Shown piece after piece: positions 6,759-46,559 of a stretch of DNA of 64,000 nt. How positions within the stretch are numbered: position 1 is the first letter of the stretch; each line of letters begins with the position of its first letter. Source of the DNA: Eledone cirrhosa. Lineage: Eukaryota. Made by a program: the position numbers and the translations under genes. A model generated the notes under the pieces. The model searched no databases and was not told the DNA's origin. It saw only the letters and a list, made by a program, of their open reading frames with translations. The DNA is taken from positions 412,734,001 through 412,798,000 of the forward strand of contig OZ024740.1 of assembly GCA_964016885.1 (NCBI GenBank), written 5' to 3'.

Positions 6759-7104
6759 GTGTGTGTGTGTGTGTGTTGTGTCAAGTGTTTCCATAGATAA
6801 GGGAATAAAATCTCAGGTTGTCGAAGCTTACTCTATTAAATATCTGATATTCGCTAGTGTCGCTTATATTTCAGGTAATAGCGTGATGGACGACATTATT
6901 TAGATGTGATCTCGTCATGTCCGTAGAGGAGTACAACCCCAAACATCAAATCAACCCTATTTTACACCCTTTTTATATACTAAACTAGTCTCAGGCCGAC
7001 AAACACATTACTGTATACAGACACGTTCAAATACTATAATCTATATAAATAGTATTAATATAATTCCACAGAAACAAAAAACATCATACTCCATCTATAT
7101 TAAT

Positions 7105-7291
7105 GATCGTTGCTAATTTTGGCACAAGGCCAGCAATTATACCAGTGCCTTACTGGTACTTTATTTTATCGACCTCGTAAAGATGAAAGGCAAAGTTAAC
7201 CTCGGCGGGATTTGAACTCAGAATGGCAAGAGACGTAACTCTAGGCGTCAAAGCATGGTGTCCGACCCTATACCGATACTGCCAATCCACC
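7105..7291 (-). mobile_element. tRNA-derived SINE
   Basis: Reverse complement of the family at 5308. Confidence 0.9.
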
Positions 7292-9020
7292 TATATTAAG
7301 AATAGACACATAAATAGACATGCACGAACACAAACATACAGCATATAAATATTTAATATTCTGCGCCTTAATAAAAACACACATGTACTACAATAATCCA
7401 TATAACTATTTGTAAGAAAAAAATTCTCCTCTCTCACTATCTATCTAACACACACACAGGCACACAAATAATACAATTATAATTATATTTAAAGGAATAT
7501 ACTGACATACACAGGAGTTGCTGCTATTGAATAACAAAACAACCGTTGTTTTTATTACATTAGTATCACACCCCTTGCACTTGTGGAGACCTCATGCAAA
7601 TAACACTGGCCATCTTTGTATTGCCTGAAAGATAACCAACGATAGCAAAGCAATTTTTCCAACACTCTAGAATTTCAAACTGTTCATTGTTATTAGAACT
7701 ACATAGTATGACATTAAGTTATGTTGTTTTATAATTTGTCAATTCATCCTGTAAGTAAATTTGTGAGATTACATTTAGTTAATGTTCAAAATATTTTTGT
7801 TGAAGTGGAATGGGATATCTTTATTTGGTAGGCTCTTATTCCAAACATCTACTCGATTATTGTTGTTATTCTTTCTTGTTATCTTAAATATTATAAATTA
7901 TTATATTTTGTATTACCTTTTTCATGAATTTATCTACCTAAATTATTCAGAGTTATTACATTTTTTGAACAACGTTATTGGACGAAACATTAAACACCAT
8001 ATAGCAAGGCATCTAGTTGATTCTATCTAATTTTACTATCAACAGAGATAATTCTATCAATATACGGCATTCTTAAAAGGCTTAAATTAACAAATATGAT
8101 GAAAAAAAGGCATCCTAAATGTACAAAACTAAAGAATGAACTGATTATAAATCCGCTAAATCAAAATTGACATAGGTGAAAACCGTAAAAACACAATGAA
8201 AACATTGGAATTTTATTGTTCGTATATATTTTTGACTTGCACATATATATTAGAAAGTAAAAGATGAAATAAACTAGTCATGATTATTCCACTACTACTT
8301 ACTGATGTGGCATCTGCTAGAAAAAAAAATGTATTCTCATTTAGCACGTTAAATGAGGTGTCGCTAGGTAAACGCTGTCGGCATAAATACACAAGTGTTA
8401 TGCCTAGAAGCGCTTCATATGACAGTAAACTACACCAACAACAACCATGTAATATTTGGTAAAATCTGTTTTAACGCTTGAAGGATGACAATTATTTTGA
8501 TATAAAACATTACCCAAGATAAAAACCACTTCTGAGTCTGATAGAGATAAATGTGCAACCACATCAGAAAGTCAATAAGCCGATCAAACACAGATCACTT
8601 GTAAATATAGATGAAATTAAATTATTACTATTTTGATCAATTTACTTACCGGAAGTGAGCAACTCAAAGGAAGTGAAGTGAAGTAATACATTTTCTTCTT
8701 CAACAATCATAGTCGCAACCAAGGTTCGAAGAACGAAGATCTGGTTTCTGTGATTTCAATGAACATGTATAGTACTAGGTTAGCAGTCATGCATCTAGTT
8801 TCACAACAGAATAATTAATCAGTATTTATTTAAGATAAAGGAAATAAACTGGCTATAAATGGATCCCGAAACGCATGGTCGCACATAAATGTTAAGTGTA
8901 AGAATCTTTGTTTATATTAAGTAATCTCACTTGCATAAGATTGAGCACTGTTTTCCTTAATATTTCATCTACGAATTTCTACAAATAGTTGGGCTAGATC
9001 GATACAGATCGAAACTTGAC

Positions 9021-9207: not shown

Positions 9208-9402
9208 CATGGTGAGCTCCGCAAAGTTTTGTTATTTTAAGTTGTTTAAAATTGCCATTTATGGTAATTTTTTATTGTTAACTGTATATAAGTGCACATA
9301 GATTGATTTCTGAAAAGGACACTCAAAAAGATTGGGGCCTTGAGCCCAAAATTTAAACTTTTATAATTATCAAACAAAAAAGAAATTTCTTTGAAAAAAA
9401 TC

Positions 9403-11315
9403 ATGGACGACTCACAGTCACACCTTCCTCACAAACTAACACCTCACACCGACACCACCATTGTAAATATTACTGCGTTTGCCAACACTAAAAATATAAG
9501 CAGTAGCAATATTTTAAATTTGTCTCAGGCAGACATTCATTTCACGCCATTACCAATGACTGCAGGTGTTAAAGCCGCCACCCCCACCACAGCGACAAAA
9601 CAGACAAAAGAAAAAAATAAATTAACTCGTGATATCGAAATGAATTCAACCAAAATGAATTCTTCCACACCGAACACCAGTTACGCCACCACCACCACAA
9701 CTGAACCAAAAATTAACAATAACAAAAATAACGATAACAACAACAATGACATTAAGAAAACCACCCTGAATTTTGCCAGAGTAGCAAAACAGTGCGAAGC
9801 ATTCCAAGTAACTCAGGAGGAATTAGAAGAAGACAAAAAAATGGTAAAGAAAGATGGGTACAGGGTCAGTCTCACCCCCACCTAATAAAATGGAGCATCG
9901 GCGCCTATGCACCGTGTCTTATCGGACGATTAGCATAAAATCGCGCTGAGTGGAACGGGCATCCGAGTCCCAAATCCCAAAAGCTTTGGGACATGTGTGG
10001 GCAAATAAAACCCACATCAGACGTGGACAGAAATATGGAACCGTGGACGTGTTCTTTGAAACACGACAGGAGGCCAGAGAACACTCCATGGCCCCATTAA
10101 GAAGTGACGACTTCACACTCGTCCCAAGCTATTGTGGCCAGAGACTCGTGAAGATCAGGGTGACCCACGTTCCACCGGCCATCGAAATTCCCTGGCTAAT
10201 AGCTGCCGTCCTCGCCGGCATCGAAGCCAACACCAAGATAATCGAAATAGCGAAAGAAAAGCAGGAGACTGGTCCGGATCTGGGATGGAGCTCCTGAACC
10301 AAGCGGACCAAAAAAGCATTGAGGAGATCCCAGAGGTAATAGACCTCACTGACGGCAGCCACCTCACCGTAATTGTCGAGGGCAGAAGGCCTATTTGTGT
10401 CGTTTGTGGTGAAGGAACCCACCTAAGGGCTTTCTGCCCTCAGGCTAAAAGGTTGAGGTCACCTATCTTACCCACCCCAGTGACTCAACCATCAACACCA
10501 CCAGCAGCAGAGATGGCAGCAACAACTGTAGCAGCAACAACAGAAGCAACTGTAACAGCAACAACCCCAGCAACATTGCAAAACCAACACCACCACCACC
10601 CAGCGCGCCAGAACTAGTACCAGCGCCTACACTATCCACCACGCCACAACGAATACCAACGCCTGGGAGGATTTTCCACTCCCTCCCCGGACTATCACAA
10701 CTAGAGACAGATTGTCACGACGAGGAGTGGGAAACGGTATCAGGAACAAAGAAAAAAAGAAACCAAAAAAGAAAAAATTCTCTTGCCTCCCCCTCCAAAA
10801 ACAAAATACAGAGGGAAACAAATAAACTATCAAACAAAAAAGTTAGGACAGATATGCCACCATCCACACCAGCATCACCAACCCCATCACCACAAACACC
10901 AACACCATCACCATCATTAACACCAACACCACCATCACCTACACCACAAAAGTCACCAAAAATCAAAAGAGAAACAAGCCCACAACAAACGCAAACAAAA
11001 CAAAACAACCAAAGTGATACACACTACACAGCATTAAATTTGAACAATAACCAATTATACACTACATCCAACACGACACCAGCATCACAGAAAAAGACTA
11101 CACAACAACCCAAAAATTTAAAAAACACCACATCCACACATACAAATCACTCGCATCACACAGAAAACGTACACGACACTAAAACAAAAATTCCCCAAAG
11201 ACATCACAGACTTCCGACAGACACTCTCCAGGAGGATTTATAAGAACATCCTTCCGGAGGAGGCCACAAACAGTGAAAAGGATGGAGAAACCATCCTTCC
11301 TCTACGAGAAGTAAG
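9403..11315 (+). pseudogene. LINE ORF1 (RRM-like segment, gag-type zinc knuckle, long T/P/Q-rich tail), broken by stops and frameshifts
   Basis: KYGTVDVFFETRQEA; TVIVEGRRPICVVCGEGTHLRAFCP (CX2CX4HX4C). Confidence 0.75.
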
Positions 11316-11353
11316 GTAAGTGGTCTTTCCCATCTTTTCCACTCCATTTCAAC

Positions 11354-14300
11354 ATGACCTCACACAGAATAGGCAGCATAAATGCGCGTGGCTTGGAGTC
11401 TTCATGGAAGCAGGGCCACCTGCTCAACGACCTCAGGTCACTAAACATAGATGTAGTGGCCATCAGCGAGACCAGAATCTCCGAAGCACGGGCCTTCGCA
11501 CCGATCTTAAGCGGCTACGATGTGTACACATCTCCCAGCCGTCCGGGATTGGGGGGAGGAGTTGCTGTGCTTTTTCGGAGAGGTCTGGATCTCGCCATAC
11601 GTGCCATCTTCCTGGACCCAGAAGGTAAGTTGTTGGTGCTAGACGTGACCAGCGAAGACGGGCAAGCTTTCATGCTAGTGGCCGTCTATGGCCCGACAGG
11701 AGCAGGGCGGCCTGATTTGTTCCTGCGTCTGGAGACCTTTCTTGGAAAGTGCCGCTCTTTAGTGTTAGTGGGCGACTGGAACGGGATCTTAGATGCACGC
11801 TGGGACTGTGTGGGATTAGCGGATAGGGGAGGAGGGTGTAAGAGCCTCACCAACCTGTTCAGGCGTTTTGAACTCTCTGACAAGTACCGATTGGATTTCC
11901 CGAATGTGGCAATGTCGACTTGGACAAATCGCATGGGGTCATCCAGATCATATCTAGATAGAGTATGTTGTAGGGAAATAGATAGGTCTAGCATAGGCTG
12001 TCCACAATTCAAGATAGTCAGCTACACGGACCACAAATTCGTGATCTGTGTCCTTGACTTAGATAGGCTTCATAGACGAGGACCCGGCTACTGGAAGCTA
12101 AACGCGTCCTTACCAGCGCGCAAGGCCTACAGAGACCGGATTAGCGAACTAGTTAAGCGGGCGTTGACGGGGGCCATCGTCAACAACAAGTGGTGGTTTG
12201 CTCGAAAAGAGCGATGAGAATATAGTCCATTAGATTTAGTAAGGCTTTAGCAATAGAGAAAAATAGAGCAGAGGGAGAACTAGTTAGAAAATTAGACGAG
12301 GCGCTTAGCAAAGGCATCGCGACCGACGTACTTGCGGCGAAATTGGCCCTCGACCAATTCTTCAATGCAAAGCACGAAGGCTGCGTTGTCAGAGATAGGG
12401 TGCGTGCTCTCAGACATGAGGGGACGAAAGCCGTTCAATGGACCCGTATGACGGAGGCGCGTCGTGGAAACAAAGCCACGCTCCGGTCTTTGGTGGACCA
12501 CGACGGGCGCATGCTACTCGATCCCGGGAAAAAGTGTGAAGCTTTTCAGCGACACTTCGCCCAGCTGTTCGGGGGCAGCGGTGGGCCGAATCGAGGGATG
12601 GACTTTAGTGTCTACCTCGACGGACTGCCGCGGCTCTCGGCCACTGAGGCGGAGTGTTGCGGAAAGCCGATAACAGCCGCTGAAGTACGTGAGGCAATGA
12701 CTGGCTGCACAAGGGGTAAATCGCCTGGTTTGGTTGGTCTGCACTATGAACTTCACGTACAGATGCCAGACTTGTTCGGAGGCCTCTTAGCGGATGTCTA
12801 CTGCAACTGGCAACAGAACGAGAGAATTCCCAGCTCTGTGAGCCGAGGAGCTGTGCGGCTGCTGAGAAAGGATCCGAACAAGGGGGATAACATATACAAT
12901 TTCAGGCCCATAACTCTGCTAAACACAGAGTTCAAGATTTTGGCCAAGGTGCTAGCAAAGAGGTTGGCGCTTGTCGTTGGTGGTCTTGTGGGAGGGGCGC
13001 AGACATGCGCTATTCCCGACAGATCCATCCACGACAACCTCCACCTCATGCGATACATCGTAGAGAGGGTAGCTAGGGAACCTGGCACGGGTGGGTCCTT
13101 TATCAATTTAGATCAGTCGAAAGCTTTCGATAGGGTCGACCATCGTTACCTAGCGGCAGTCCTGAGGGCGGCTGGTTTGGGCCCGTCTTCAGAGGCTGGA
13201 TCGCTGCCATGCACAGCGACATCTGCTCTGTGGTGAGAGTGAACGGTCAACTTTCGCAACCGTTCAACATCATGCGCTCGGTCCGCCAAGGATGTCCCCT
13301 CTCGTCCCTCTTGTACGTATTGACACACGAGCCATTACTGCATAAACTGAAGACGTTGAGGGGGGTCCCGCGCGAACTAGGATGCGGAAGATCCGTATTA
13401 GCATATGCCGACGATGTCACCGTAGTGGTGTCGAACACCAAACACATCGAGATGATCGGCACTACACTAACATAATACGAAGCGGTGACAGGAGCAATGA
13501 TCAACCAGGAGAAGTCCGTTTTCCTGCAGCTCGGCACCTGGAGAGGCAGGTCCATGCCGTCCAACAGTGTTGTCGGGCGCTGGACGGACGGACCGGTTAA
13601 ATTGCTAGGGGTCTGGTTCGGTCAGGACCTCCAGACGGACAAAAACTGGGACGACGTGACGAGCAGGATGGCTTCTCTCATCCAGAAATGGGCGGAGAGG
13701 AAGCTATTCCTGAAAGGACAAGCAGAGGTGGCTAACGCGTATATCGCGTACGTCATCTTCTACAGCCTTAACGTCGTACCTTGTCCTAAGCCCCGCCTGA
13801 CTGCACTGGAGCGTTTGCTCTTTTGCTTTTTGTGGAAGGGACGCGCTCCGATGGTCAGGCGGTCCATCTGCTGTCAACACCCGCTACGTTGAGGGCTGGG
13901 CATGCCGTGGCTGATGATGCGCAGACACGCGCTCAGGCTACGACATCTCCACCTCTTCCTCGACGGTGATCAGGTGTGGTCGCCGTTTGCTAGACACGTC
14001 TTTCCCCAGCTCGTCTCCTTGTCGGAGCTGCAGTCCTGGGTCAAGCGAAGCCCGAGAAGGAGCGCTTTGAGACTGGAATGTCTTCAGGCGCTGACAGCCC
14101 TCGGCCAATCGGGCAATGTGGTCGGTGGAAACTCCACCTTGGCGTTCTATAGAGGATTAGTGGAGGGGAAGAACGACGACGTACTTGGAGAAACTCTAGG
14201 CGTCGACGAAAATCAACTAACCAATCTCTTCGGAAGGACTTTCGAGCCGGGGCCTATGGAGAACTTCCAGAAATCCCTGGCCTGGCAGTGCTACCGAGGA

Positions 14301-14700
14301 GCTTTGCCAGTTCGGGATAAACTCTACAGGCATGGAGGTGCCGTCAGCCGGGCGTTTCCGAGATGCGCGCAGGGCGACGAAACCTTTCTGCACGCCCTCG
14401 TCTAGTGTCCGAGCATTGCAGACTTGTGGGTTTATGTCGAACACCTGCTGTCGCGTGTAGGACGGATCCAGCTATGAGCTGAGTCCATCGTGAGGATTGC
14501 CCCGCCCTCTTCCTTTAGCCGGGAAGGGCAGGCAGTTTTTATTCTGTCTGGTGGCCATGGCGAAAAAGATAGTATGGTGGACACGTTTCAAAGGGCTGAA
14601 GACGAGCACTTACCTCTTTGGTGATGCCCTGATTAATTTTTCAAATTTCATTTGAAAAGGAAAATCAGGGTAGGGAGGGAAGTGAATGGGCCTACTCTGA
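11354..14700 (+). pseudogene. LINE ORF2: APE endonuclease + reverse transcriptase + C-terminal zinc finger
   Basis: SINARGL, ISET, VGDWN, SYLDR, TDH, YWKLN; KSPG, FRPITLLNTEFKILAK, LDQSKAFDRVDH, VRQGCPLS, YADD; PRCAQGDETFLHAL. Several stops and frameshifts. Confidence 0.95.
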
Positions 14701-15031: not shown

Positions 15032-15063
<32 letters not shown>

Positions 15064-15581
15064 ATATATTGTTATACTTGGGGAGGGTCATATTTGTGTA
15101 ATACCGCCAGAATTAATAACAGAACACACTCACTTTTTGGTTGGTTTTCACTTTTGGCTTCTGTGACTTTTATATCGGTAATCAAATTTATGCGGTCCTC
15201 AATGTTGCCATTGACTGACCAACGGTCAAAAATACAGATACAATATAGACACAAACACATATATATAGTTTATCAAAGTACTTTCCTTGCACATCTGCAA
15301 CATCGTCAGTGGTGCTATAGATTCCACCCGTTGCATTGTATTTCTACGCCATCTTTATTTAGTCTGTTTATATATTTATTTATTTGTTTGTTTGTTTGTT
15401 TATTTTATTTTGTCTTCTTTGCGCATGCGTTTGCGTGTGTGTATAGTGTTTTATTTGATGTGTGTTCGTGATTGGGTGACTGTGTATTGGTTAATGTGTT
15501 CTAAGTTTACTAGTGTGTGTTTATATGTGTTTGCTGTTATTGTGCTTGTGTATGTATTTATTTATTTAGTTATATATTTAT

Positions 15582-16847
15582 TTATACTTCTCTTAGGTCA
15601 GTGTTGTTTGTTTGGGTGTTGTTGTTATTCCATTCATTATTTCTGTTTAGTCTTTGCCTTCTAAGTTCTATTTCACTGGCCTCTCTGATTTGCCTATCTG
15701 CTGGGTCATTTCTATGTTTAGATATTATTCTAAATTCTATGTTGTCTATGTTACCGTCATGTTGTTGTCTGGCATGGTCGTATAGTACTGACCCGTTTTT
15801 TCATCCTTTTAATTCCCACCAGTGTTGGTCTATCCTTTCACCTATGCTACGAGCTGTTTCGCCTATCTATGTTGTCGTCATGTTTCTGCAAGTACCCCCT
15901 GTACATCTTATGCTATAGACTACATTTCTCGTTTTATAGTTTATCCGGGGGTTTACCTTACATATGATACACTTCCTATTAGTACAGTGGGTTTTCTTAA
16001 AAGTGTAGGTTTTGCTGATCAGGGATTTTATGGTGGTTCCTGGCTTTTCTACCACCTTAATCTTTAAGTGGGCCTTTCTCAGGCCCTTTCTACACTGGTT
16101 AGATAATTTCCCTCCAGGGGTAGCATCCACAAACATGACACTCTGGTATCTCTGGTTGTCGTACCATGAGGTGGCTTTCCCTATCTTATGTCTAGCCCTA
16201 TCTAAGCTATTCCAGGATTTGCTCCTGTATAATGGGCAAATTCCTTTCATGTCCAGTTCTATGAGGGTCTTATACTTCTCCATGGCTCCTTCGTATACTC
16301 TGACTTTTTCTCTTTGGTTGTAACCAGAGAACTGCATGCGGTTGATGAAGTGTTGGATGTGTCTTTCCATGTCTATTGGGTCGCACATGCGGGACACATT
16401 CTTCATCACTCGTACCAAATCTGCGATCAGAATATTAAACTTAGCACTACTGGACATTGCTGAGCTTTTGAGTATCAGGTATTTGGAGGCCATGGGTTTA
16501 GCATAGTGTGAGTGGAGAATTTGGGCTCTCTCGTCTATAGTGTTAATCCATAGTTCCGTGTCTAATACAGGTAGTCTATTGTTAGGGTGTTTGAAAGGGT
16601 AGTCGATAGTTACAGTTATACTCTGGTGTATGGAATTAGCTATCTGCTGGATGCTTTCCATTGTGCTACGTTCTAAATCAAACTTGTTAGTGCTCTCTAG
16701 TGGGGATGTTCTTATAACTATATTGATATCATCTACGTAACGAGAGTACATGATGAGGTCTATGGAGCTCTCATTAAGGAGATCTTTAAGTCTCCTCTCC
16801 CACCATACCATGAAAGGGTTGGCAACATCACCAGCTATGCTGACGCC
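15582..16847 (-). pseudogene. PLE4 RT C-terminal half + GIY-YIG
   Basis: GVSIAGDVAN, RYVDD, LPVLD, HYAKP, CTNRKCIIC, VVYSIRC...*IGETAR. The first ~45 aa of the listed 371-aa ORF come from the inverted UTR. Confidence 0.9.
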
Positions 16848-16949
16848 AAAGAAGACACAATAAAATAAAACAAACAAACAAAAAAATATATAAATATATA
16901 AACAGACTAAATAAAGATGGCGTAGAAATACAATGCAACGGGAGGAATC

Positions 16950-17005
16950 TATAGCACCACTGACGATATTGCAGATATGCAACGAAAGAACTTTGATAAA
17001 CTATA
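16950..17005 (+). ncRNA. Hammerhead-like motif in Neptune-like 3' UTR (also 15264-15319 minus and ~28933-28995 plus)
   Basis: tatagcacca-CTGACGA-t(g/a)ttgca..tgcaac-GAAA-g(t/a)ac-TT-tgataaactata. Stem II good, stem III palindromic in the 15.3-kb copy, stem I imperfect. Confidence 0.6.
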
Positions 17006-17260
17006 TATATGTGTTTGTGTCTATATTGTATCTGTATTATTTTTGACCGTTGGTCAGTCAATGGCAACATTGAGGACCACATAAATGTGATTACCTACAT
17101 AAAAGACACAGAAGCGAAAAGCGAAAACCAACCAAACAGCGAGTGTGTTCTGTTATTAATTCTGGCAATATTACACAAATATGACCCTCCCCAAGTATAA
17201 CAATATTTGTTTCGACACACGATTTCATATAAAAAACCTCGCAAAACTAATTCATCGCCG

Positions 17261-17946
<686 letters not shown>

Positions 17947-19673: not shown

Positions 19674-19838
19674 ATCGGTAGGTCAGACATGCTTTCCAGC
19701 ATAGTTACGCCCCTTTACGATCTGAGTTCAAATCCCGCCGAGGATAACTTTGCCTTTCATCCTTACTAGATCGATAAAATAAAGTACCAGTAGTGTACTG
19801 GATAATTGCTGGCCTTGTGCCAAAGGTAGAAACAATTA
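19674..19838 (+). mobile_element. tRNA-derived SINE, 5'-truncated
   Basis: Family match. Confidence 0.88.
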
Positions 19839-20326
19839 TCTTATAGGCATATTTTCTATGTCAGTAATTTCTCTTCATTCATAATTTCTTATTAATGAAA
19901 TTACCAATGGGGCCAATTATTCGGGATTCCTTATAATTGTTGAAATCTTTTTACTGACTGGCTGCGTTGGAGAAGACACTAGTTGTCATTTTCTGGCAAC
20001 TACCTAGATTTTCTCCTCTAAATGGAGAAAATATATTCAATGAAAATACGTCTCAAATTACTCGTGATAATTATCGTTTCATTTTAATTTTTTCTATTAA
20101 CCGGATGAAGAAATCGTGAGAAGTGATTCGTTCAAACACAAATTTATATAATCTTCATCCATTCAATAAAAAAAATATTGAATTAGTTTGTCTGGGGGAG
20201 CATACTCACGGGTTTTCTGAAAGTTACTTTCCTGCTTCTCATCGCTGGTGAAGTTTTCTAAATGATTGATGAGTGGGACCTGACTAAACCGAAAATATAT
20301 ATAGCAAAGCACCAAAATAAAACCTT

Positions 20327-24044: not shown

Positions 24045-24445
24045 TTAGAGCGTGAGGCATGTTCTACACCATAGAGCTACGGACCTTTACGTTCTGAGTT
24101 CAAATAAGATCAGCTTTGCCTTTCATCCTTACGTGTTTGATAAAATAAAGCACCTGTAACGCACTGGGGTCGATTCAATCGACTGACCCCGTCTCCCCAA
24201 AATTGCCGGCATTGTGCTTAAATCAGAACCCATTATTATTATTATTGGTGTATTGGCAGTATCGGTAGAGGGTCGGACGCCATTCTTCGCAGCAAAGAGT
24301 TACGGCCCTTTATGGTCTGAGTTCAAATCCCGCCGAAGTTAACTTTGCCTTTCATCCATACGGGGTCGATAAATTAAAGTGCCAGTAATGCATTGGACTA
24401 ATTGCTGGCCTTGTGCCAAAAGTAGAAACAATTATTATTATTATT
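24045..24445 (+). mobile_element. Two tandem SINEs; the first is a longer subfamily with an extra ggggtcgattcaatcgactgacccc hairpin
   Basis: Family match at 24045-24235 and 24247-24440, joined by (att)n. Confidence 0.85.
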
Positions 24446-25261: not shown

Positions 25262-25326
25262 CAAAATTAAGATAAATCAAAGTGAAATTAATCTAAATCA
25301 AAATTATGGGTGTCATCCCAGAAAGG

Positions 25327-25590
25327 GATTAACATATAAATAAAGATATGAAACAATCACAGGGGATAATTTTTACAAGTGTGCAAGCACACATAGCAAG
25401 GTGACTAACTAAATAAGGTTAACTAGAACTTCAAAAATAGATACATTATAATATGATTAATCATATTATAAGGTATCTATTTTTGAAGTTCTGGTTAACT
25501 TTATTTAGTTACCTACCTAGCTATGTGTGCTTGCACACTTATAAAAATTATCCCCTGTGATTGTTTCATATCTTTATTTATATGTTAATC
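25327..25590. repeat. 264-bp loop-less palindrome
   Basis: Centre ttataatatgatt|aatcatattataa at 25458/9. Arms have a few mismatches. Confidence 0.9.
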
Positions 25591-25602
25591 AATTTCTAGT
25601 TG

Positions 25603-25641
<39 letters not shown>

Positions 25642-25644
<3 letters not shown>

Positions 25645-25785
25645 TAAGGAACCAGATGGACCATAACGCATCAAATTACTCAATACTTAGGGTAGTAGAG
25701 TGGGTAATAGGAACAAGAAGGACCCCGACGGCAAAGCTCAAGCCGTTTCGACGGCTAATTCTGAGTCCAGAATTAGCCGTCGAAA
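25642..25785 (-). mobile_element. PLE-like 3' end carrying 3' half of a hammerhead, truncated at stem II
   Basis: Minus: gacggctaattctg-gact-cagaattagccgtc-GAAA-cggc(ttgagcttt)gccg-TC-ggggtc. Homologous to 30007-30185. Confidence 0.7.
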
Positions 25786-25790
25786 TATGT

Positions 25791-25980
25791 AGTTTTAATA
25801 TAGATGAGATTCTACAGGAATAGAACTGTTTCAATCTAGAGAAATAATCGAGATTCCTGATGATTTCTAAAGAATGAAACAGTTCTAGTCCTGTAGAATC
25901 TCATCTATATTAAAACTGTTATACTCTGCTATGTAATGAGTACCTTACTTACTAAGGTGACTTCCGATTCAACCCGGAAT
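25791..25980 (+). mobile_element. Micro fold-back PLE end (arms 25791-25849 / 25859-25917) plus tail
   Basis: Inverted match seen directly. Confidence 0.78.
25850..25902 (+). ncRNA. Complete type I hammerhead ribozyme
   Basis: gagattc-CTGATGA-tttctaaagaat-GAAA-cag(ttctagtc)ctg-TA-gaatctc. 7-bp perfect stem I, GUA triplet, short stem II. Confidence 0.82.
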
Positions 25981-26012
25981 AACGTATATATATATATATA
26001 TATATACGATAT

Positions 26013-26055
26013 ACGTTACTGACGATAGCACATAAGCTTGAAACTTGTACAGCGT
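26013..26055 (+). ncRNA. Minimal hammerhead (unit 1), core intact, stems with mismatches
   Basis: acgtta-CTGACGA-tagcacataagctt-GAAA-cttg-TA-cagcgt. Confidence 0.75.
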
Positions 26056-26440
26056 TCCTTTGTCAGTGTTGAACAAACGAGTAACGTGGTTGCTAGACAC
26101 TACGGCTTAATACGGGATGTTTGTTTACAAACACACCGAGCATTATAATAAATATTCGGTGAATCCATACGTACATATATATATATGTGTGCATGTATGT
26201 ATATATAAATACATACTACTGTACGTCTGTATACATATATGTATGTACGTATACATACTTATATTTAAGTAAGAGCCGTACTATGAGTGGGAAATTAATT
26301 TTGTTTCATTTTTTCCGTTTATCGTTTACGGTGCACCCGGCCGATTAACCCACTCAATATGCAAATTGGGCTACTCAGCCGTTAATATGCATAAGGAAAG
26401 TATATACTTTCAGACGTTCAATCATCTGGCAGGAAGGTAT

Positions 26441-26484
26441 ACGTTGCTGACGATAGCTAATAAGCTTGAAACTAGTACAGCGTT
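26441..26484 (+). ncRNA. Minimal type I hammerhead ribozyme (unit 2)
   Basis: acgttg-CTGACGA-tagct(aata)agctt-GAAA-ctag-TA-cagcgt. Palindromic stem III, GUA. Confidence 0.87.
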
Positions 26485-27138
26485 CTTTCTCAATGTTGAA
26501 CAAACGAGCAACGATGGTTGCTAGACACTACGGCTTAATACGGGATGTTTGTTTACAAACACACCGAGCATTATAATAAATATTCGGTGAATCTATACGT
26601 ACATATATATATGTGTGCATGTATGTATATATATATACATACTACTGTACGTCTGTATACATATATGTATGTGCGTATACATACTCATATTTAAGTAACA
26701 GCCGTACTAAGAGTGGGAAATGAAATTTCGTTTCATTATTTTCCGTTTATATATATATACATATGCGCGCGTGTGTGTGTGTTCTAATTGGAAGCTGTAA
26801 ATTTATGAGTACGGTGGTCTAGATTTCCATCATAGATTTAGAAACGTTTGTGTTTGATGTATTAATGAGCTCACATATAAACAAACAGTTCCAGCATTAA
26901 ATTTATCTAATCTGTTCTATATCTAAATGTGCAGGGCATGGTTTGCCGTCGAGATAGCTGGTATTGGGTAGCTAATTCATTGACTATGTATAGTGCAACC
27001 TGCGCAACTATATTCATATATATTGAAGTTTTTTGCATATTTTATGCATGTCTGTTTATAGGTAATTGACGCAACTATAATTCCCAAACAAAATGACATC
27101 TTAATTATATGGAATATATCTATATATATATATATATA

Positions 27139-27191: not shown

Positions 27192-29192
27192 TTGCGAGGT
27201 TTTTTATATGAAATCGTGTGTCGAAACAGATATTGTTATATTTGGGGAGGGTCATATTTGCGTAATATTGCCAGAATTACTAACAGAACACACTCACTGT
27301 TTGGTTGGTTTTCGCTTCTCCCTGTCTTTTATATATATATATCTGCGATCTAACTTACTCGGTCCTCAATGTTGCCAAAATGAGGGAGCAGCCATCGGCG
27401 TCAGCATAGCTGGTGATGTTGCCAACCTTTTCATGGTATGGTGGGAAAGGAGACTTAAAGATCTCCTTAATGAAAGCTCCATAGACCTCATCATGTACTC
27501 TCGTTATGTAGACGATATCAATATAGTTATAAGAACAGCCCCACTAGAGAGCACTAACAAGTTTGATTTAGAACGTAGCACGATGGAAAGCATCCAGCAG
27601 ATAGCTAATTCCATACACCAGAGTATAACTGTAACTATAGACTTCCCTTCCAAACACCCTAACAATAGACTACCTGTATTAGACACAGAACTCTGGATTA
27701 ACACTATAGACGAGAGAGCCCAAATTCTCTACTCACACTATGCTAAACCCATGGCCTCCAAATACCTGATACTCAAAAACTCAGCAATGTCCAGTAGTGC
27801 TAAGTTTAATATTCTGATCGCAGATTTGGTACGAGTGATGAAGAATGTGTCCAGCATGTGCGACCCAACAGAAATGGAAGGACACATCCAACACTTCATC
27901 AACCGCATGCAGTTCTCTGGCTACAACCAAAGAGACAGAGTCAGAGTATACGAAGGAGCCATGGAAAAGTATAAGACCCTCATAGAACTGGAATTGAAAG
28001 GAATTTGCCCACTATACAGGAGCAAATCATGGAATAGCTTAGATAGGGCTAGACATAAGATAGGGAAGGCCACATCATGGTACGACAACCAGAGATATCA
28101 GAGAGTCATGTCTGTGGATGCCACCCCTGGAGGGAAATTAGCTAACCAGTGTAGAAAGGCCCTGAGAAAGACCCACTTAAAAATAAAGGTGGTAGAAAAG
28201 CCAGGAACCACCATAAAATCCCTGATCAGCAAAACCTACCCTTTTAAGAAAACCCACTGTACTAATAGGAAATGTATCATATGTAAGGTGAACCCCCGGA
28301 TAAACTGTAAAACCAGAAACGTAGTCTATAGCATAAGATGTACAGAGGGTACTTGCAGAAACATGACAACAACATAAATAGGTGAGACAGCTCGTAGCAT
28401 GGGTGAAAGGATAGACCAACACTGGGGGGAACTAAAAGGACGAAAAAACGGGTCAGTACTATACGAACATGCTAGACAACAACACGACGGTAACATAGAC
28501 AACATAGAAATTAGAATAATATCTAAACATAGGAATGACCCAGCAGATAGGCAAATCAGAGAGGCCAGTGAAATAGAAATTAGAAGACCAAAGCTAAACA
28601 GAAAGAATGAGTGGAACAACAACAACACCCAAACAAACAACACTGACCTAAGAGAAGTATAAATAAGTAAATAAAATTAAATAAAATAAGATAAATAAAT
28701 ACATACACAAGCACATAAACACACACTAGTCACCCAGCAGACACAACACTATACACACTAGTCACACATCGCACATAACACTATACACACACGCAAACGC
28801 ATGCGCAAAGAAGACAAAATAAAATAAGATAAACAAACAAGCAAATAAATAAATAAATATATAGACAGACTGAACAAAAAAAAAAAAAAAAAAAATGGCG
28901 TAGACATACAACACAACAGGAGGAACAATGAATATAACACCACTGACGATGTTGCAGATGTGCAACGAAAGATTTATGTAAATTATGTAAACTATATATA
29001 TGTGTTTGTGTCTATATTGTATCTGTATTATTTTTGACCGCCGGTCAGTCAATGGCAACATTGAGGACCGAGTAAGTTAGATCGCAGATATATATATATA
29101 AAAGACAGGGAGAAGCGAAAACCAACCAAACAGTGAGTGTGTTCTGTTATTAATTCTGGCAATATTACGCAAATATGACCCTCCCCAAATAT

Positions 29193-29200
<8 letters not shown>
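27188..29200 (+). mobile_element. Penelope-like element PLE3 (Neptune-like), 5'-truncated, inverted arm 27188-27377
   Basis: 27230-27377 is the reverse complement of 29053-29200. TA tracts on both sides. Confidence 0.92.
27376..28662 (+). pseudogene. PLE3 RT C-terminal half + GIY-YIG, one in-frame stop
   Basis: QNEGAAIGVSIAG, RYVDD, CTNRKCIIC, VVYSIRC...T*IGETARSMGERIDQH, RQIREASEI, LNRKNEW. Confidence 0.92.
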
Positions 29201-29234
<34 letters not shown>

Positions 29235-29774: not shown

Positions 29775-29854
29775 TATATATATATATATTATTGTTGTTT
29801 AGACACTACCTTGCTCACAAGTGTCTTTTTTAAGCTTCATATCATGTCTCCCTA

Positions 29855-29921
29855 TTTTATCTGATGAGAACGCAAATATCGTCCCTGGATTATATTTGTT
29901 TTTGAAATGCGCATAATAAAA
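29855..29921 (+). ncRNA. Hammerhead ribozyme in a diverged PLE1-family 3' end (~29810-29950)
   Basis: ttttat-CTGATGA-gaacgcaaatat..atatttgttttt-GAAA-tgcgca-TA-ataaaa. Flanks align with 4575-4705. Confidence 0.85.
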
Positions 29922-29956
29922 AACATGAAACTTTTCTAACCATCTTTTAATTTCTT

Positions 29957-30005
<49 letters not shown>

Positions 30006-31927: not shown

Positions 31928-32211
31928 TGTGTGTGTGTGTGCGTGCGTGTATATACAAGATGTTGTAGCAATAAACAGAAAGTAAAATAGTAAGTTCTTT
32001 TAAAACGCATCAAACTTTTGCCTGAACATATAATTGTGACACCCTCATCCTAAGAGATAACAGTCATGGAGAATCGAATACAATATAGAACTCGAACATT
32101 CATACCTGCCTACAAACGTAACGCATCTATCAGATATCACCTATATTACTAAAGATATGTCTAAGTATAAATGAATTCACTTTATATCATATTCTATGTC
32201 TATAATTTACA

Positions 32212-32600
32212 TAATTGTTTCTACTTTAGGCACAAGGCCAGCAATCAACCAGTGCATTACTGGTACTTTATTTTATCGACCCTGTAAGGATGAAAGGCAA
32301 AGTCAACCACGGTGGGATTTGAACTCAGATCGTAAAGGGACGTAACTATGCTGGAAAGCATGGTGTCCGACCATCTACCGATACTGCTAGCCACCGTCTA
32401 TAATTTACATTATGATATATAGTTGTTTCTACTTTTGGCACAAGGCCAGCAATTACCCAGTGCATTACTGGTACTTTATTTTATCGACCCCGTAAGGATG
32501 AAAGGCAAAGTTAACCTCGGCGGGATTTGATCTCAGAATGGCAAGGGGCATAACTCTATGCGTCAAAGCATGGCGTCCGGCCCTCTACCGATACTGCCAA
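32212..32600 (-). mobile_element. Two adjacent SINEs
   Basis: 32212-32398 (TSD gtctataatttacat) and 32422-32600. Confidence 0.9.
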
Positions 32601-34689: not shown

Positions 34690-34871
34690 AAAGTTATATT
34701 TAAATTGTTGGGTTACAACTAGTAAATATTTATAACTGATATAAAAGCACTCAACAAGTATTTGGAGTATATTTACGATATTAAATAAATGGAAACTATA
34801 TTTATAAAACCATATTTATTTCATTATATATATTTCAGGGATATCATATTAACAATATGTTATGCCTTCTT

Positions 34872-36535
34872 CACAAAAGGAATTTTGAAAATGACTTGCC
34901 AGTTAGATTGATCGCACCATCAAAATCGGACCTGGGCAAATTAAGCAAAAACATTCTTGACAGGGTGATACAGCAAATTAAAAACTTGGATTGTTTACCT
35001 AACCTGAGCTTGTGGAAGGGAACTGGAGAGGTTGTTGAGTGGTTTAAGCAAATTAAATATAACAATAATGATAAGTTTATTCAACTTGATATTGCTAACT
35101 ATTATTCTTCTATTACCCCTAATCTACTAAATAAGGCACTAAATTACGCATTCAAACATACAGACCTAACTAGCAATGAAATGCACATTATATTATAGGC
35201 TAGGAAAACATTGATAGAATTTAATGACCAACTATGGACCAGAGCAGATAGAGATAGCAATTTTGACATTACTATGGGATCATCCGACTCAGCTCAGGTA
35301 ACTGACCTTGTGGGCTTATTTTTAATCAATTCGCTACATAGGAAAATACCTGGTACTACCGGAGGTTTATATAGACATGACATGCTTTTACTTATTGATA
35401 ATAATAACTCTGAACTAAATAGAAAAAGAAAACAAATTACACAATTTTTTAATTACTTTAATCTAAAAATAGAAATTGAGAACAACCATAGAATAGTCAA
35501 TTTCCTAGATATAACATTAAATCTCAACACATGTCTTCACTATCCATTTCACAAGTTGAATGAAAACTTAAACTATGTCAGCTTTAACTCTAACCACACC
35601 AGATCTGTCAAAAACACTATAGTAAACTCTGTTCAAAAACGTATCTCTAGAATCTAGTCTAATAGAAAGATTTTCGACGAAAAAGCCCAGTACTACAATG
35701 AAGCGTTAGCTAGAGCAGGATATAGTGATAAGATTATGTACATAGATAATGATAGACAAACTAAACAAAATAACAACTATTTTAATTACGGCCACAACCT
35801 TAACAACTATAATAGAAAGCATTACAATAATTCCAAAAGCCAAAAAAGAAATAGAACTAGGAACATAATATGGTTTGCCCCCCCCCCCCTTTCTCACTAA
35901 ACATTAAAACCCACATCGCTAAACTATTTTTTAAAGCTCTTGATAATCGCTTCCCTAGAACACATAGGTATCACTCAATTTTCAATAGACATACTATAAA
36001 ATTAACCTACTCATCCACCAAAAATTTAGCACAAAATATTAATAGAATAAATAATAGGAACTTAAAACCTAGCGATAATAGCATAAATAATATACAAGTT
36101 AACAAATGTAACTGTAGAGATAGATCTAAATGTCCGTTAAATAACAACTGCTTAGTTAAAAATATAATATACAACTGTAATGTTAAAACGGACTCTAATT
36201 CTTTTAACTACGTCGGTTCCATATCGACGGAATTTAAACTTCGCTATAATAACCACAAGAATTCTTTCACAGATCCAAGCAAAAAATCTTCAACAGCACT
36301 ATCAGGCGTACTCTGGCAACTTAGGCAAGATAACGTTAGATATTCGACGGCTTGGAATATAGTCTCAAGGGGGATTCCTTTTAATTCATCCTCTGAGACA
36401 TGTGACCTCTGTGCGGAGGAGATATTCTTTATACTAAAATCTAAAAATTCCCTTAATCTACGGACAAATTTATTTAGTTGCTGCAAACATAGATTGAACT
36501 CAACTTTTAAATATAAATTTAAATTTAAAATGTAG
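34872..36535 (+). pseudogene. PLE2 RT + GIY-YIG with stops/frameshift
   Basis: HKRNFENDLPVRLIAPSKSDLG, QLDIANYY, ITMGSSDS, LYRHD (YxDD mutated), CNCRDRSKCPLNNNC, IIY..YVGS, CDLCAEE. Confidence 0.92.
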
Positions 36536-37858
36536 TATATTTAGTTTGATTTGTAATTATTTGGGAAACTAGCCGATAAATCTTTCGATTTCTTCTTTTT
36601 ATTCTTCTTTTTATTTTAATTTTTATTTTAAACATTCTTCATGAAAAATTAAACTACCCTAAAAGTTGATGCTCCAAATATATCGAATAAACGTTACACT
36701 AGATAAACTTCTATATTAAATATAAGAACATATGTAGACCAAATGGGTATCCTAAACTTTTGAAATGATTTCTGCTAGACGCGATTTGGTAAATAATTTT
36801 TAGCTTTATCTGTTTTCGACTCTGATGCTTATAATGAACTTGGCAATATATTGTCAATTAATTTTGAAGGGTTGATCTTTGTGGTCGATTTGCGTGGCAT
36901 ATTATGTTTTTATTTTTATTATTTTAATATTTTTTAATATTTTTAATATTGTCATTTTTAATATGTAATATTTTTCAGTTTTCTATTTTATTTATTTGTT
37001 TATTATTATTATTATTATTATTTTTTGTTTTTGTTTCTGATATTTTTATTAATATATTGAAATCTGTTCTCTATTTCTGCTTGATAGATAATCATGTAGA
37101 GTAAAGACAAGAATAGTATTGTTAAAATTAATATAGACTCTATATATATGTGTGTATATATACACATATATGTATACTTAAATGTTTATAGCACAATGAG
37201 AATGTTCTCCGTGTGAAATAGGGGTTTGCAGAGTTGATCACGTAAATTCACATCGATGTTTGTAGTTATCATATAAACATATGAATTTTCAAAACTAGAC
37301 ATAAGATCATTACTTTTCACACATTATAGATACGTGTCTCATTCAGGAATACTGATATTTACATTATAGTGCCTGGTTTTTATACGAACTAATATTTCTA
37401 CATTAAAACATAGGGTTTTTAAATTCTGCCTCGCCTATGTCTGGTTACTTTTCATTTTTCTCTCTATATAACGGCTGGTTTCTTTCCTAACCACATATAT
37501 CTCCCTTACATTAATACTAGAGCTAAATAAATAAATAAATAAATAAATGTATCATTGATACGTCGTTCAACTACCTACTTTTCTCTATATATATCTATCT
37601 CTATCTATTTCCTCTCTCTATATATCTCTCTCTGTTTCTTTACATGAAGTTCTTCTCTTTATCTATCTTTCCATCTCTCTATTTTGTTGCATGCATTTCT
37701 TCTTTTTCTTCTTTTTCTTCGTTTTCTTTCTTTCTTTCCTTCTTTCTTTCTTTCTTTCTTTCTGTTTACAATTTTTCACTGCCAAATCAACTATTTCAAA
37801 TACAAGTCGATGTTGAACGGTATGTCAAATCTATTTATCTATAAAACTGTCTATATTG

Positions 37859-37924
37859 TATTTTGTCTGAAGAAGGCATAACATATTGTTAATATGATAT
37901 CCCTGAAATATATATAATGAAATA
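37859..37924 (+). ncRNA. Type I hammerhead at PLE2 3' end
   Basis: tattttgt-CTGAAGA-aggcataacatatt..aatatgatatccct-GAAA-tatata-TA-atgaaata. Confidence 0.83.
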
Positions 37925-37964
37925 AATATGGTTTTATAAATATAGTTTCCATTTATTTAATATC

Positions 37965-38069
<105 letters not shown>

Positions 38070-38823
38070 CAGAATGGATTTAATACTTGGAAAACTATTC
38101 TTCCTAAGAGAAAAAGATGCTACCTTTATATATTTTCACCAATCATATAAGCCACTTTCCCGAATATGCATTTCTTTCAATCGGCAGGATTTAGTTATAA
38201 AGAAAATGATGTTTGCGACAAACAATGTTTAATTATAATAACCTTGATAGTCACAGACACTTCCACATTGATGATAAATTGCATGTGATAATCTATTTCA
38301 TTGAAACATCTATGTAATAACAGATATTGAGAAGCTGAGTGCCATTACACCTTTATCTGATAATGGAAACTAACCATTGAATACGTGCAATATCCTTTGA
38401 CATAAGCGTGGAACCCATTGAGAATAATACGTAAACAGATTCGTGATTGTATATCGATGTTGTCCTTTTAGGAAACACTTGTATTCCGTTTCCATCATAT
38501 TGCGAAGCGACTGGTTAGCGCGGGAAACTTAAATCAATATAACCAAATAACATATGTATCGATATTTCCAAAACGAAGGATTCTAAGTTCAGGAATATAC
38601 AAGGCTTTAATTAAGTGATTTATTTAATAGTTTCGAAATCTATCTTCACCTGAAGGACTCGTGTCCGAAATGATAATAAACTTTTCCAATTATTTCAAGC
38701 GTGAAACTAATATATTTATTCAACATACTGTGTCGTTTGTTTCGTTTATATCTGTTTAAACTCTCTCTTACTCTCTTTCTTTCCTTCTTGCTTTTTCCCC
38801 CTCTCTCACCCCCGCTCTCTTTC

Positions 38824-43232: not shown

Positions 43233-44187
43233 TGTCACTATCTATATAACGAAGAAATATATTTTTACAATCTTTTGACAAACTTGCATATGAAAGGGCT
43301 TCTTTGAATTATCTCTATATTAGCAACATCTTTTACCAAAAAATTGATCTATGCGGATATAAAAGATGCAAAATTGATGAACATCATTCAAAGTAATCCT
43401 GATTTACGGTATCTAATTTTTTATTTTTAAAATGTGTATAAAATATTTACATCTTTAACCGGTCCCAGCTCGGTGTTTCGCTAATTACATCTTTAACACC
43501 TAGTTATATTTGGAGCCTTTCTGAATATATTTGTTTATATTTGAGACATTTTATTACAGTTTTGATATATAGTTTTAAATCATAAAAAAGAGATTTAATA
43601 TTTTCTTTCCTCATTAATTGTTCTACAACTGAACTAAACTTAAATGGTAGATTTGGCATATATTCTCAGTGATTTCAGCCGTGCCTAGTCGACGAAGAAA
43701 TCATCAATGATGGTGGAGCCTTTTCTCGTCCCAGCTCTTCTGCCAAATTGTTGTGCAGGATCAATACTGTAAGTGGTGAAGGGACGAGTTCCCAGCAAGC
43801 TCGTCAACGTTTGTTTCACCGAATCTCTTTGCGGGTGATGTCACTTTATTTTCATGATGATTAATCATAATTATTTTACCATATCTTGTTTAATCTTAGT
43901 TTATATCTTAGAGATATTCTGGAGATTGTCACGTATTTTTAAATAACGATGTTATTTTGTTACATTTGATTAAATTGTTGACCAACAACACTCACCGAAA
44001 GAAGTCCTTTTCTATTCGATGAAAATATTCATAGCTATTGTTATCCATTTAAGGAACACTTGTAAGATTTATAGACGGCATACAACAAAGGAAATCAAAG
44101 TTATATTCATAAAATTTTAGTTTAGGTAATAAATGTTTCAGTTTGAAACTTTTTAAAATACTATAGTGAATTATAAGCCCCATCAAA

Positions 44188-44372
44188 ATAATTGTTTCTA
44201 CTTTAGGCACAAGGCCAGCAATTACCCAGTGCATTACTGCTACTTTATTTTATCGACCCCATAAGGATGAGAGGCAAAGTTAACCTAGGCGGGATTTGAA
44301 CTCAGAATGGAAAGGGCCGTAATTCTATGCGTCAAAGCATGGCGTCCGACCCTCTACCGATACTGCCAATCC
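44188..44372 (-). mobile_element. tRNA-derived SINE
   Basis: Family match. TSD aagccccat(c/a)aaaataat. Confidence 0.92.
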
Positions 44373-46559
44373 AAGCCCCATAAAAATAATGAACGGAAAT
44401 GATGTTCTAATTCGATCGTTGCTTTGAATAGGAAATAAGAATAAATATCTAGACAATATCGTCGGTAGAATATGGGCGAGACATAACATTTTATGAGAAC
44501 GGCCCTGATTTAGCAGCACATTTTCGTTGTAAATTAACTAAAATCCCCAAACAATACAGTCTCTTATTTCTTCTAATTATTTCATTACAAACAGGAGTCT
44601 TGGGGAGACAGAATGACGATAAAATACATAAACAGGTATATTAAACTGGGAGATATGGAAACATATTTCTCTTGTGATGATCCCCGTTTTTAATGGATTA
44701 ATTCAGATTAAGTATTAAACGTATCCATCTATCAGTAAAATGAATAGCTACGTATAATTATCGCATTCTCGATAGACAGGTAAGTATTCCCTTATTGCAA
44801 ATGGAATTTATTAAACCTGTAGGGAGCTACTATATTTCTTATATTGTTTGGGGGGGAGCTAAACAAAAATATTAACTTATTTAGTATTGGTAATTAATTT
44901 TATCGATGCAATAATAATTCGTTTTACCCTTAGAATTACGTATCATATTTTTGGTATGAATGTATAGTTGATTCAATATACTTCAATATACATGTCTGGT
45001 ATAAATGACTGGTACTTATCTATCTAGTAATCGTAAAATACAATGCCAGCCAGGAAACAATTTCAACTGAAGATATTTAAATCAATGCGCTCACTTTTCT
45101 GCCAACGCATGTGCAAAAAATATTGAAATTGTAAACATAAGTAGGGAATGTTTTATATATCTTTTTTCAATCATGCTCTCACGACATAACAAAAGTAGCA
45201 GCAGTTCTTACACAGTATATTTTTATTCATTTATGCAGCATTGCTCGCTAGAATATGCCTACTGTTTTGCGTGATGCTCAATTTGCTACACATTTCCACC
45301 ACCACCCTCCCCGAAAAAACGTCAATTATCAACATGCCTGTGTGCAATATCTTACAAAATAATTGAAAGGAAAATTTGTCTTTTATATATACTTTGCACA
45401 TTATTACATATAATGCATTTCAATGTTCTTACTATTAGTGGTTAGCAGAATACTGAGCTTATATCCGTGCGTATGTGAGCATCTGAGAGTCTGTGTAGAT
45501 GTGTATGCTATTGTGTTTAAGGGATGTTCAGCGATTAATGTTAATTTGTAGCATTGTCCGATGTAAGTATGTGTTCTTATACATTTTTGCCCGTGTTTTT
45601 TTACTCTATCCATCCTTACTTTTAATATGATTGTGTGTGCCCTTTGTTCGAATCGTTTACATTTTTCTTTATGTATAGTTTATAAATAATCATGAGTATA
45701 CTAAATAATATTTTCTTTTACATGATATCATGACATTAACTTTCTCTTGAAAACTTTGTTTTGATGATTTACCAATATCATTTTCCTTCAACAATTGGTG
45801 TTTCATATTGTATCTTCATCTACCGATTGCTGCATAATGAATTATAATCATATAACACATTAAATTATTCAGGAGCTTACCCTTGAGAATTATATAGATT
45901 TTACAGTTAAAATACTAGCACATTCTTTCTGTATCTTTACAATAACTCTAATATCCTAACTGTCATATACGCAGTATTTAGAGAATTTTACGCAAATCAT
46001 TAGAATTGAGAATTCTCAAAGGTCCAAAATGTTTGAACTTGTATCATTCCATAATTAGTAGTTTAAATAAACTACACGAATGCATATTTGGTATTAAGAT
46101 TAATTAGATCAATGTAGTGAATTCACTAAGTTATGTTATCGGGCGTCTACGTATGGTATTTCCCTATATCAGTCAGATAATTTTAAACGTTATTCACCTT
46201 TTCAGTTATGGCGCTTAGTAGTTCTATATACAAAGAATGGAGAATATTCAAAGCAAAGAAGAAACACTAGAATATTACGGGGAAAATGAAGTAAGATATT
46301 TAGCATTATTAAAGGTTTTGGTAAAACATTATGCGGCATATATTAGAAAGTATTGATATGCACACTTCCTGCGTAAAGTGGAATTAAAAGCTACTCATTT
46401 GTACAATAAATATGAGCACGAACATAACAGAATACTAGATAAATCAGAAATAGACACTTTTGATGGCAATTTTTATATCGAAGCCTGTAGTGCCGAAGTT
46501 TGAAATTTATGAGGACATGGAGATTTCTTGTGAGATTTGAGGTGACATATATATATATA

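Follow-up and report, generated by a model that had tools for sequence, protein, structure and literature searches.

At 26010..26750 of the window, by which we mean the whole 64,000-nucleotide stretch of Eledone cirrhosa DNA analysed here, lies what is most probably a decayed member of an abundant non-coding hammerhead repeat with Penelope-type insertion ends; the repeat is likely a non-autonomous retrozyme, likely carries an internal promoter and is likely copied by a Penelope reverse transcriptase (RT) from uncleaved multimeric or circular RNA. For the way in which animal retrozymes move, this family supplies a measurable integration footprint, made up of the paired use of two fixed start sites, one and one, the read-through of the ribozyme junction and the occurrence of fresh multi-kilobase insertions of identical units. 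The retrozyme class and its link to Penelope elements are already published (PMC7229834; bioRxiv 10.64898/2026.07.22.740005). Related hammerhead cores, several families taken together, amount to about 21,000 matches and thereby to a sizeable repeat class in the genome.

Organisation and decay of the locus

The initial annotation described a tandem with cores 428 nt apart in a TA tract, and this was borne out: positions 26010-26322 and 26438-26750 align at 93% identity as a partial tandem of about 1.7 units, the CUGACGA cores begin at 26019 and 26447, the GUA cleavage triplets end at 26049 and 26477 (a spacing of 428 nt in both cases), and (TA)n lies on both sides (Table 1). The arm measures 733 nt, matches the family majority at 94% and belongs to a 428-nt subtype. 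No frame of at least 100 aa was found over the element, an ORF encoding RT and GIY-YIG domains is absent from it, and a candidate coding remnant in the internal segment (26323..26437) found no support.

Table 1. Positions of the hammerhead tandem, its parts and a dispersed repeat in the window
Feature	Position	Strand	Remark
Single-arm retrozyme insertion, 428-nt subtype, 1.7 units	26010..26750	+	begins just before hammerhead 1, finishes at the 'long' 3' end
Hammerhead 1, damaged	26010..26055	+	predicted cut would come after 26049
Hammerhead 2, intact canonical type I	26433..26491	+	core 26447; predicted cleavage after 26477
Predicted snRNA-type upstream promoter	26356..26408	+	TATGCAAATT at 26358; TATA-like box at 26400; predicted start ~26432-26436
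Internal segment, from the long 3' end of the unit to the next hammerhead	26323..26437	+	position of the ORF in an autonomous Penelope element
Purine-pyrimidine (TA/TG-rich) hairpin	26595..26689	+	stops at the family 'short' 3' end, ~26690
Tail, ~60 nt between the two fixed 3' ends	26691..26750	+	on one arm only in two-armed insertions
(TA)n target, left	25985..26006	.	from sequence
(TA)n target, right	26751..26762	.	from sequence
~190-nt repeat copies	5311-5501, 7097-7304, 19674-19851, 24070-24444, 32200-32600, 44185-44373, 58545-58743, 61030-61230, 61957-62483		

The claim that a hammerhead starts each unit held in so far as both cores are present, but unit 1 is damaged: A·C replaces the G-C pair that closes stem I, stem III no longer has its palindrome (ACTTGT), loop II is altered and stem I lacks the upstream half of its extension, the copy beginning 9 nt upstream of core 1. 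A relaxed hammerhead scan of the window, which returned six matches against a mean of 0.07 in 30 shuffles, detected unit 2 and not unit 1. The sole promoter motif of this copy sits between the units and precedes hammerhead 2 only. Because hammerhead 1 is damaged and no promoter stands before it, the locus is probably a dead end, and for the same reasons the release of a 428-nt monomer that had been proposed for it is not supported.

Hammerhead fold and covariation

In unit 2, stem I consists of 6 bp, an internal loop and 4 bp; stem II has 3 bp, a basal U·U and a loop of six bases; and stem III is a single A-U pair that closes the palindromic CUAG loop. The palindrome earlier ascribed to stem III is thus present, but not the three stable paired stems in cis, stem III being 1 bp long. 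Nor is the ribozyme a 'minimal' type I hammerhead, as it had been called, its form being the canonical metazoan type I described in PMC4209133, in which a weak helix III hinders cleavage of the monomer and allows that of tandem dimers, a dimer-dependence thought to spare monomeric circles. On this model the ribozyme of the present family is likely dimer-dependent as well.

An Infernal scan against Rfam, named in the initial annotation as a check, returned no hammerhead match either at the gathering threshold over the whole window or at E<=10 over 25900-26900; the microRNA matches that Rfam gave arise from the TA-rich hairpin and all fall under the gathering score. Folding of the 61-nt motifs alone likewise gave no signal (z of 0.5 and -0.3), as is expected because stem III is only 1 bp. 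The covariation set comprised 11 related motifs from about three lineages. Compensatory changes on both sides affect 8 of 15 pairs across families, 91.5% of cells pair (slid controls drop to 32-53%), and the covariation score was reached by 0 of 500 shuffles, a count that overstates the covariation because the sequences are related and the lineages few. The catalytic core is invariant across the motifs, with GUA, GUU or GUC as the cleavage triplet, and covariation provides good support for the predicted hammerhead fold. Folded as a circle and set against 40 shuffles, the monomer gives z = -7.8 with the majority sequence of the family and -5.1 with the window copy, about 70% of positions being paired and stem I closing the junction; the TA-rich hairpin accounts for much of the low folding energy.

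Family size, age and relatives

A search of the genome (3.0 Gb in 1,796 contigs) recovered 9,874 intact family cores when the loop was relaxed, while exact patterns for the 35-nt core, a downstream and an internal stretch gave 5,424, 6,841 and 3,338 matches, respectively, with none in each control. The unit is hence not single-copy, occurring in arrays of up to 50 units, and the earlier description of a non-coding, multi-copy tandem retrozyme with a type I hammerhead was confirmed by these 9,874 cores and by the lack of a frame of at least 100 aa. Across 84 full units the mean divergence from the majority, which is 420 nt long, is 2.6%; this family (family A) is young and contains several subfamilies.

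A pattern with the same stem III and a different stem II yielded 11,333 matches (16 in the control), mostly of a sister family, B; the first 100 listed represent B and an older subfamily, C. The family B unit, at 466-470 nt, is 62% alike to the window unit and collinear with it throughout. Examples of family B, with arrays of up to 30 units, are found at G000:C1:30831600-30840900 (L250, L251), at C1:5738094-5752747 (L242, L243) and among L236-L258. A distant family, D (L134:3100-3800, L161:1700-2350, L257:2290-2790), possesses a hammerhead with a different stem III, the promoter element in three tandem copies and two 3' ends in (TA)n.

Insertion ends, arm pairing and target

Arms were mapped in 115 loci, drawn from the 30 best BLAST loci (a number that precedes overlap removal) and from the initial 62 Mb of contig C1; loci that overlapped others, and one duplicate, were discarded. 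A 3' end is visible in 183 arms, 84 of which finish at a 'long' point, 79 at a 'short' point some 58 nt upstream of it and 20 elsewhere, and (TA)n is present at 76 of 84 long and 66 of 79 short ends (142 of 163 canonical ends overall). Most loci are dispersed insertions of one to three units with scattered 5' ends, and 61 pairs of arms form two-armed, head-to-head insertions. Among 46 classifiable pairs, 45 combine a long with a short end (two being local duplicates), one is long with long and none is short with short, for which p is about 1e-12 against independent choice of ends. Sister family B, whose tail is about 69 nt, obeys the two-end rule in 13 of 13 classifiable pairs out of 14. This near-strict pairing, which is relevant to Penelope integration generally, suggests that, within one complex, one site primes per strand.

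The hallmarks of Penelope elements given in PMC8557442 are a one-ended tail, an inverted 5'-truncated copy, partial tandems and microsatellite targets, while PMC11167929 describes an anole Penelope enzyme that nicks both strands and a tail delimited by two internal sites at which RT starts. The family resembles these elements in its 5' truncation, partial tandems, inverted neighbour, one-end tail, AT-rich target and two internal RT starts, and differs from them in a tail of about 58 nt as against 30-40 nt, in having no ORF and in the promoter-like segment that occupies the ORF position. The mobilisation of the family is Penelope-like, and the Penelope-type mobilisation put forward in the initial annotation is upheld at the level of the footprint, namely two fixed ends, the 45/46 pairing and a (TA)n target. 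Non-autonomous, multi-copy Penelope elements, such as MRC1 of Chlamys, also feature in the Penelope literature (PMC8557442/PMC11167929).

A predicted snRNA-type promoter inside the unit

Outside the ribozyme, TATGCAAATT is among the longest blocks that are invariant across families A, B and C, of which A and B are 62% alike. The same element occurs at -77 to -79, together with a TATA box at -31, in five of five host genes for U6 (three distinct promoters), U6atac and MRP, and is absent from the host U1, U2 and U5 genes. In the 100 nt upstream of host snRNA genes (L284-L347), the U6, U6atac and MRP arrangement is thus an octamer-like element at -78 and TATA at -31, and that of U1, U2 and U5 an AT-rich box near -90, TCAGT at -56 and a TATA-like box near -30.

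A promoter model was built from the five host genes, U6 and U6atac matches without the element being omitted as presumed retrocopies or interrupted promoters. Units score 19.5-23.5 bits under this model, family D 14.6 bits and the host genes, each left out in turn, 21.4-29.7 bits, the background being one site of at least 20 bits in 857 kb of flank. The distance from element to TATA is 41-42 nt in the units as against 46-48 nt in the host genes, the spacing window of the model having been widened post hoc, and family A has in addition a TCAG box 26 nt upstream of TATA that resembles the host U1/U2/U5 (Pol II snRNA) promoters. A run of six T residues stops Pol III; such a T6 run is present in the tail, and the arms nonetheless read through it. 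Transcription is predicted to start 3-28 nt upstream of the core, a region in which 5' ends are in mild excess. Judged by these motifs, the unit likely carries an snRNA-type promoter that drives its transcription.

An upstream promoter of this kind would be passed on only if copying enters the previous unit, and tandems or circles would therefore be needed for its inheritance; the candidate promoter would in this way explain the need for the tandem form. The element followed by two intact hammerheads was found in 14 of 187 arms and 14 of 115 loci, the window copy excluded. Promoters inside hammerhead tandem units have precedents, cited in PMC2220036, in newt satellite 2 (snRNA-type, Pol II) and in schistosomes (Pol III). 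As distinct from newt satellite 2, the motif of the present family matches the host U6/U6atac/MRP element and not that of U1/U2/U5, with a spacing shorter than that of the host.

Copies of snRNA genes were also seen beside such elements: at L316:1400-1620 a U6atac copy and a family D arm meet head to head, and at L311 and L328 two U6 copies adjoin short TA-flanked elements resembling window positions 25640-25985. Such arrangements suggest that snRNAs have been retroposed as the second arm by the same machinery.

The RNA template and a proposed life cycle

The 5' ends of 153 arms were analysed with an adjustment, approximate for L002-L030, for the patterns by which loci had been selected. Of 121 arms, none has its end within 2 nt of the cleavage site; 11 of 132 terminate in the next 13 nt (4.6 expected), and 14 (5.9 expected, p=0.003 uncorrected) do so at the predicted start, immediately before the hammerhead or in its first part; the 5' ends are otherwise even around the unit (chi-square p=0.16). 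Sharper 5' pile-ups proved to be partly an effect of locus selection, and correction left only two mild excesses, one around the predicted start and one immediately beyond the cleavage site. Because the arms read through the cleavage site, the junction lies within a template that is mostly unbroken, an uncleaved multimer or a circle, and the earlier idea that a cleaved linear monomer is copied is not supported. The excess at the predicted start implies that linear primary transcripts serve as templates in some cases.

Between opposite arms and between adjacent units, 76% of subfamily markers are shared, as against 16% for random pairs, and each insertion derives from one template lineage. Mosaicism at two or more markers affects adjacent units at 8 of 52 informative loci and opposite arms at 15 of 46, and a single monomer circle alone does not explain such loci. 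The clearest case of uniformity is the family B insertion at G000:C1:30,831,600-30,840,900, whose short-ended arm of 3,193 nt and long-ended arm of 6,027 nt, both ending canonically, contain between them 18 complete identical units with four positions that are absent from 55 other units sampled; at L137, nine near-identical family A pieces extend over both arms. Eighteen identical units on both arms are what rolling-circle copying predicts, although they do not require a circle, and assembly polishing could homogenise units.

Higher-order periods of 2 (L136, L160) and 4 (the 50-unit array), together with shared variants in the 30-unit array, indicate later amplification at the DNA level. The period-2 arrays were considered as evidence for dimer circles and discarded as such, given that the L136 and L160 haplotypes differ and DNA-level duplication suffices. 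Family A arrays of this type include C1:51772400-51793800, with about 50 units in a period-4 higher-order repeat, and C1:53354300-53370600, with about 38 units and a head-to-head junction that is still visible. Sequence contigs from four runs of unknown kind contained the repeat in run X1 and traces of it elsewhere, and are not usable as expression evidence.

Based on these findings, the following life cycle is proposed: (i) the motif present at the end of the unit would act as a promoter and drive transcription from just before the next hammerhead and on through the tandem; (ii) by analogy with salamander and mussel retrozymes, cleavage and ligation would follow, the 1-bp stem III with its palindromic loop confining cutting mainly to dimers, so that multimers would be trimmed to monomers of 420-428 nt, which would be stable once ligated into a circle with a single hammerhead; (iii) a Penelope RT-endonuclease, which we infer from the two ends, their pairing and the target observed, would nick both (TA)n strands and prime two cDNAs at fixed sites about 58 nt apart, one per strand, and these would stop at random and be joined head to head; (iv) copying past the cleavage junction, evident as read-through in the arms and presumably on a circular template, would restore tandems of promoter and hammerhead, the sole form that could seed a new round; and (v) some long arrays, as their higher-order periods show, were expanded later at the DNA level. 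The cycle is directly testable with a 420-nt RNA and the intact Penelope ORFs that this genome contains.

A more specific reading is that the insertions record rolling-circle reverse transcription, one circle being copied from two fixed sites onto both (TA)n strands in an event that can yield about 20 identical units (9 kb), and a U6-type promoter working only if copying crosses the ligation junction. We hold this tentatively, the case for it being almost evenly balanced; if true, it would lay out an animal retrozyme's life cycle in full and offer a substrate for its reconstitution, and circularisation would be what makes a minimal element heritable.

It is rather unlikely, by comparison, that the family is a non-autonomous Penelope derivative made from linear uncleaved transcripts only, with arrays formed by DNA amplification, the hammerhead largely a passenger and no circle. 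Such a derivative would have steps (i), (iii) and (v) in common with the best explanation, and the excess of 5' ends at the predicted start, the mosaic arms and the higher-order arrays all fit it, as does the finding that the anole enzyme, the only Penelope enzyme examined in vitro, acted mainly on unprocessed RNA (PMC11167929). A linear template would, however, have to keep about 13 consecutive intact hammerheads uncut to yield the 6,027-nt arm, and two arms that are identical down to private variants are not easily obtained from independent amplification, while the preservation of core and stems through compensatory changes, across families that are 62% alike, speaks against a passenger role for the hammerhead.

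Search for a partner enzyme

None of the 187 arms is contiguous with Penelope coding sequence, which lies near 27 of the 115 loci, all same-strand matches up to 1.2 kb upstream being separated from the arm by a TA run. Attachment to an RT ORF, which the initial annotation regarded as the mark of an ordinary pLTR, is therefore lacking in the sampled arms. That the unit is a 5'-truncated pLTR of an unsampled autonomous Penelope element is accordingly very unlikely, even though the order of its parts (hammerhead, about 245 nt, short end, tail and long end) parallels that of a neighbouring autonomous pLTR and frog retrozymes are homologous to pLTRs (bioRxiv 10.64898/2026.07.22.740005): upstream of the hammerheads lie a 115-nt internal segment and another unit, a TA run always intervenes before Penelope coding sequence, and the family has subfamilies of its own, by which this origin is largely refuted for the sampled copies. 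Least probable of all is a satellite spread at the DNA level with the hammerhead as a relic, for which the 30-50-unit arrays with higher-order structure might be cited, since most loci are dispersed insertions of one to three units, whose two fixed 3' ends, scattered 5' ends and (TA)n target constitute a reverse-transcription footprint and so argue against DNA-level spread as the main route.

As to a partner for the non-autonomous retrozyme that we prefer, sensitive BLAST detected no similarity between the unit and the loci of two neighbouring Penelope families, and a joint profile run over 1.34 Mb of sampled DNA found only non-coding relatives, including family D, and no coding partner. A third Penelope family gave no coding partner match, and its pLTR may lie beyond the sampled flanks; the genome contains further Penelope families besides. 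The view that the surrounding Penelope relics supply the enzyme thus gained no support, none of the neighbouring families tested sharing the sequence of the unit. The families at 27230-29233 and 34785-38076 have the architecture of the unit and not its sequence. The former, an adjacent autonomous family (27230-29233; 15033-17377; L196:4900-9363), is young, with 22,207 candidates, and includes, elsewhere in the genome, intact frames of 1,217 aa that encode RT, a zinc linker and GIY-YIG; in its element at 27230-29233 one arm is inverted, a tail of about 43 nt stands on one side only, and an atypical hammerhead core lies near 28944. Pfam recognised none of four Penelope fragments from the window.

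Comparison with known retrozymes

The present family and the metazoan non-LTR retrozymes of PMC7229834 alike have a type I hammerhead in each unit, unit 1 of the window being a decayed exception. Retrozymes are characterised as low-GC tandems of 150-450 bp, from dimers to multimers, that are non-coding and have a self-paired monomer; here, units are 420 or 428 nt long with a GC of 0.36, in arrays of up to 50, without an RT ORF and with circular folds at z -7.8 and -5.1, and family B (466-470 nt) lies slightly over that size range. Axolotl Amex1 (PMC7229834) has the same 1-bp helix III with a palindromic tetraloop, and Amex2 the same U·U at the base of helix II. In that study (Cervera and de la Pena 2020), cleavage and circles were shown, and mobilisation by Penelope and circular templates were only proposed; here, by contrast, the integration footprint is measured, cleavage and circles being predicted. 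The words 'octopus' and 'cephalopod' do not occur in the main text of PMC7229834, to which that search was confined.

A preprint (bioRxiv 10.64898/2026.07.22.740005) concludes from co-occurrence and pLTR homology in 35 species, none of them a mollusc, that animal retrozymes represent non-autonomous forms derived from Penelope elements. Our data agree with it on origin and class of partner, and differ in that no homologous pLTR was found here; in the portion of the preprint available to us, no analysis of insertion ends, arm pairing, read-through or promoters was encountered. The openly accessible full texts searched here yielded no cephalopod retrozyme and no report of retrozyme arm pairing, read-through or identical-unit insertions, and the main text of an Octopus vulgaris repeat annotation (PMC13282606) does not contain the words 'ribozyme' or 'retrozyme'. 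The family may be listed under another name in supplements, in Repbase/Dfam or in subscription papers.

Other elements in the window

Further Penelope-type elements with hammerheads of their own are present at 1131-4724, 29816-30002, 34785-38076 and 324-560, the cores lying at 542-, 1238-, 4617+, 29861+ and 37867+ (the sign denoting the strand); one of these elements has inverted terminal copies of about 1 kb, and another has 61,032 candidates, with 745-aa frames elsewhere. Near-perfect short palindromes between TA tracts, at 25320-25597 and 25791-25917, are probably very short two-armed Penelope-type insertions, the second of which has a hammerhead-like core that was found in seven sampled loci. 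The window also holds, at 9367-14405, a decayed LINE with an APE endonuclease and RT, which we take from its motifs to be L1/Tx1-like, and many copies and short tandems of a dispersed repeat of about 190 nt, a SINE-like size (Table 1).
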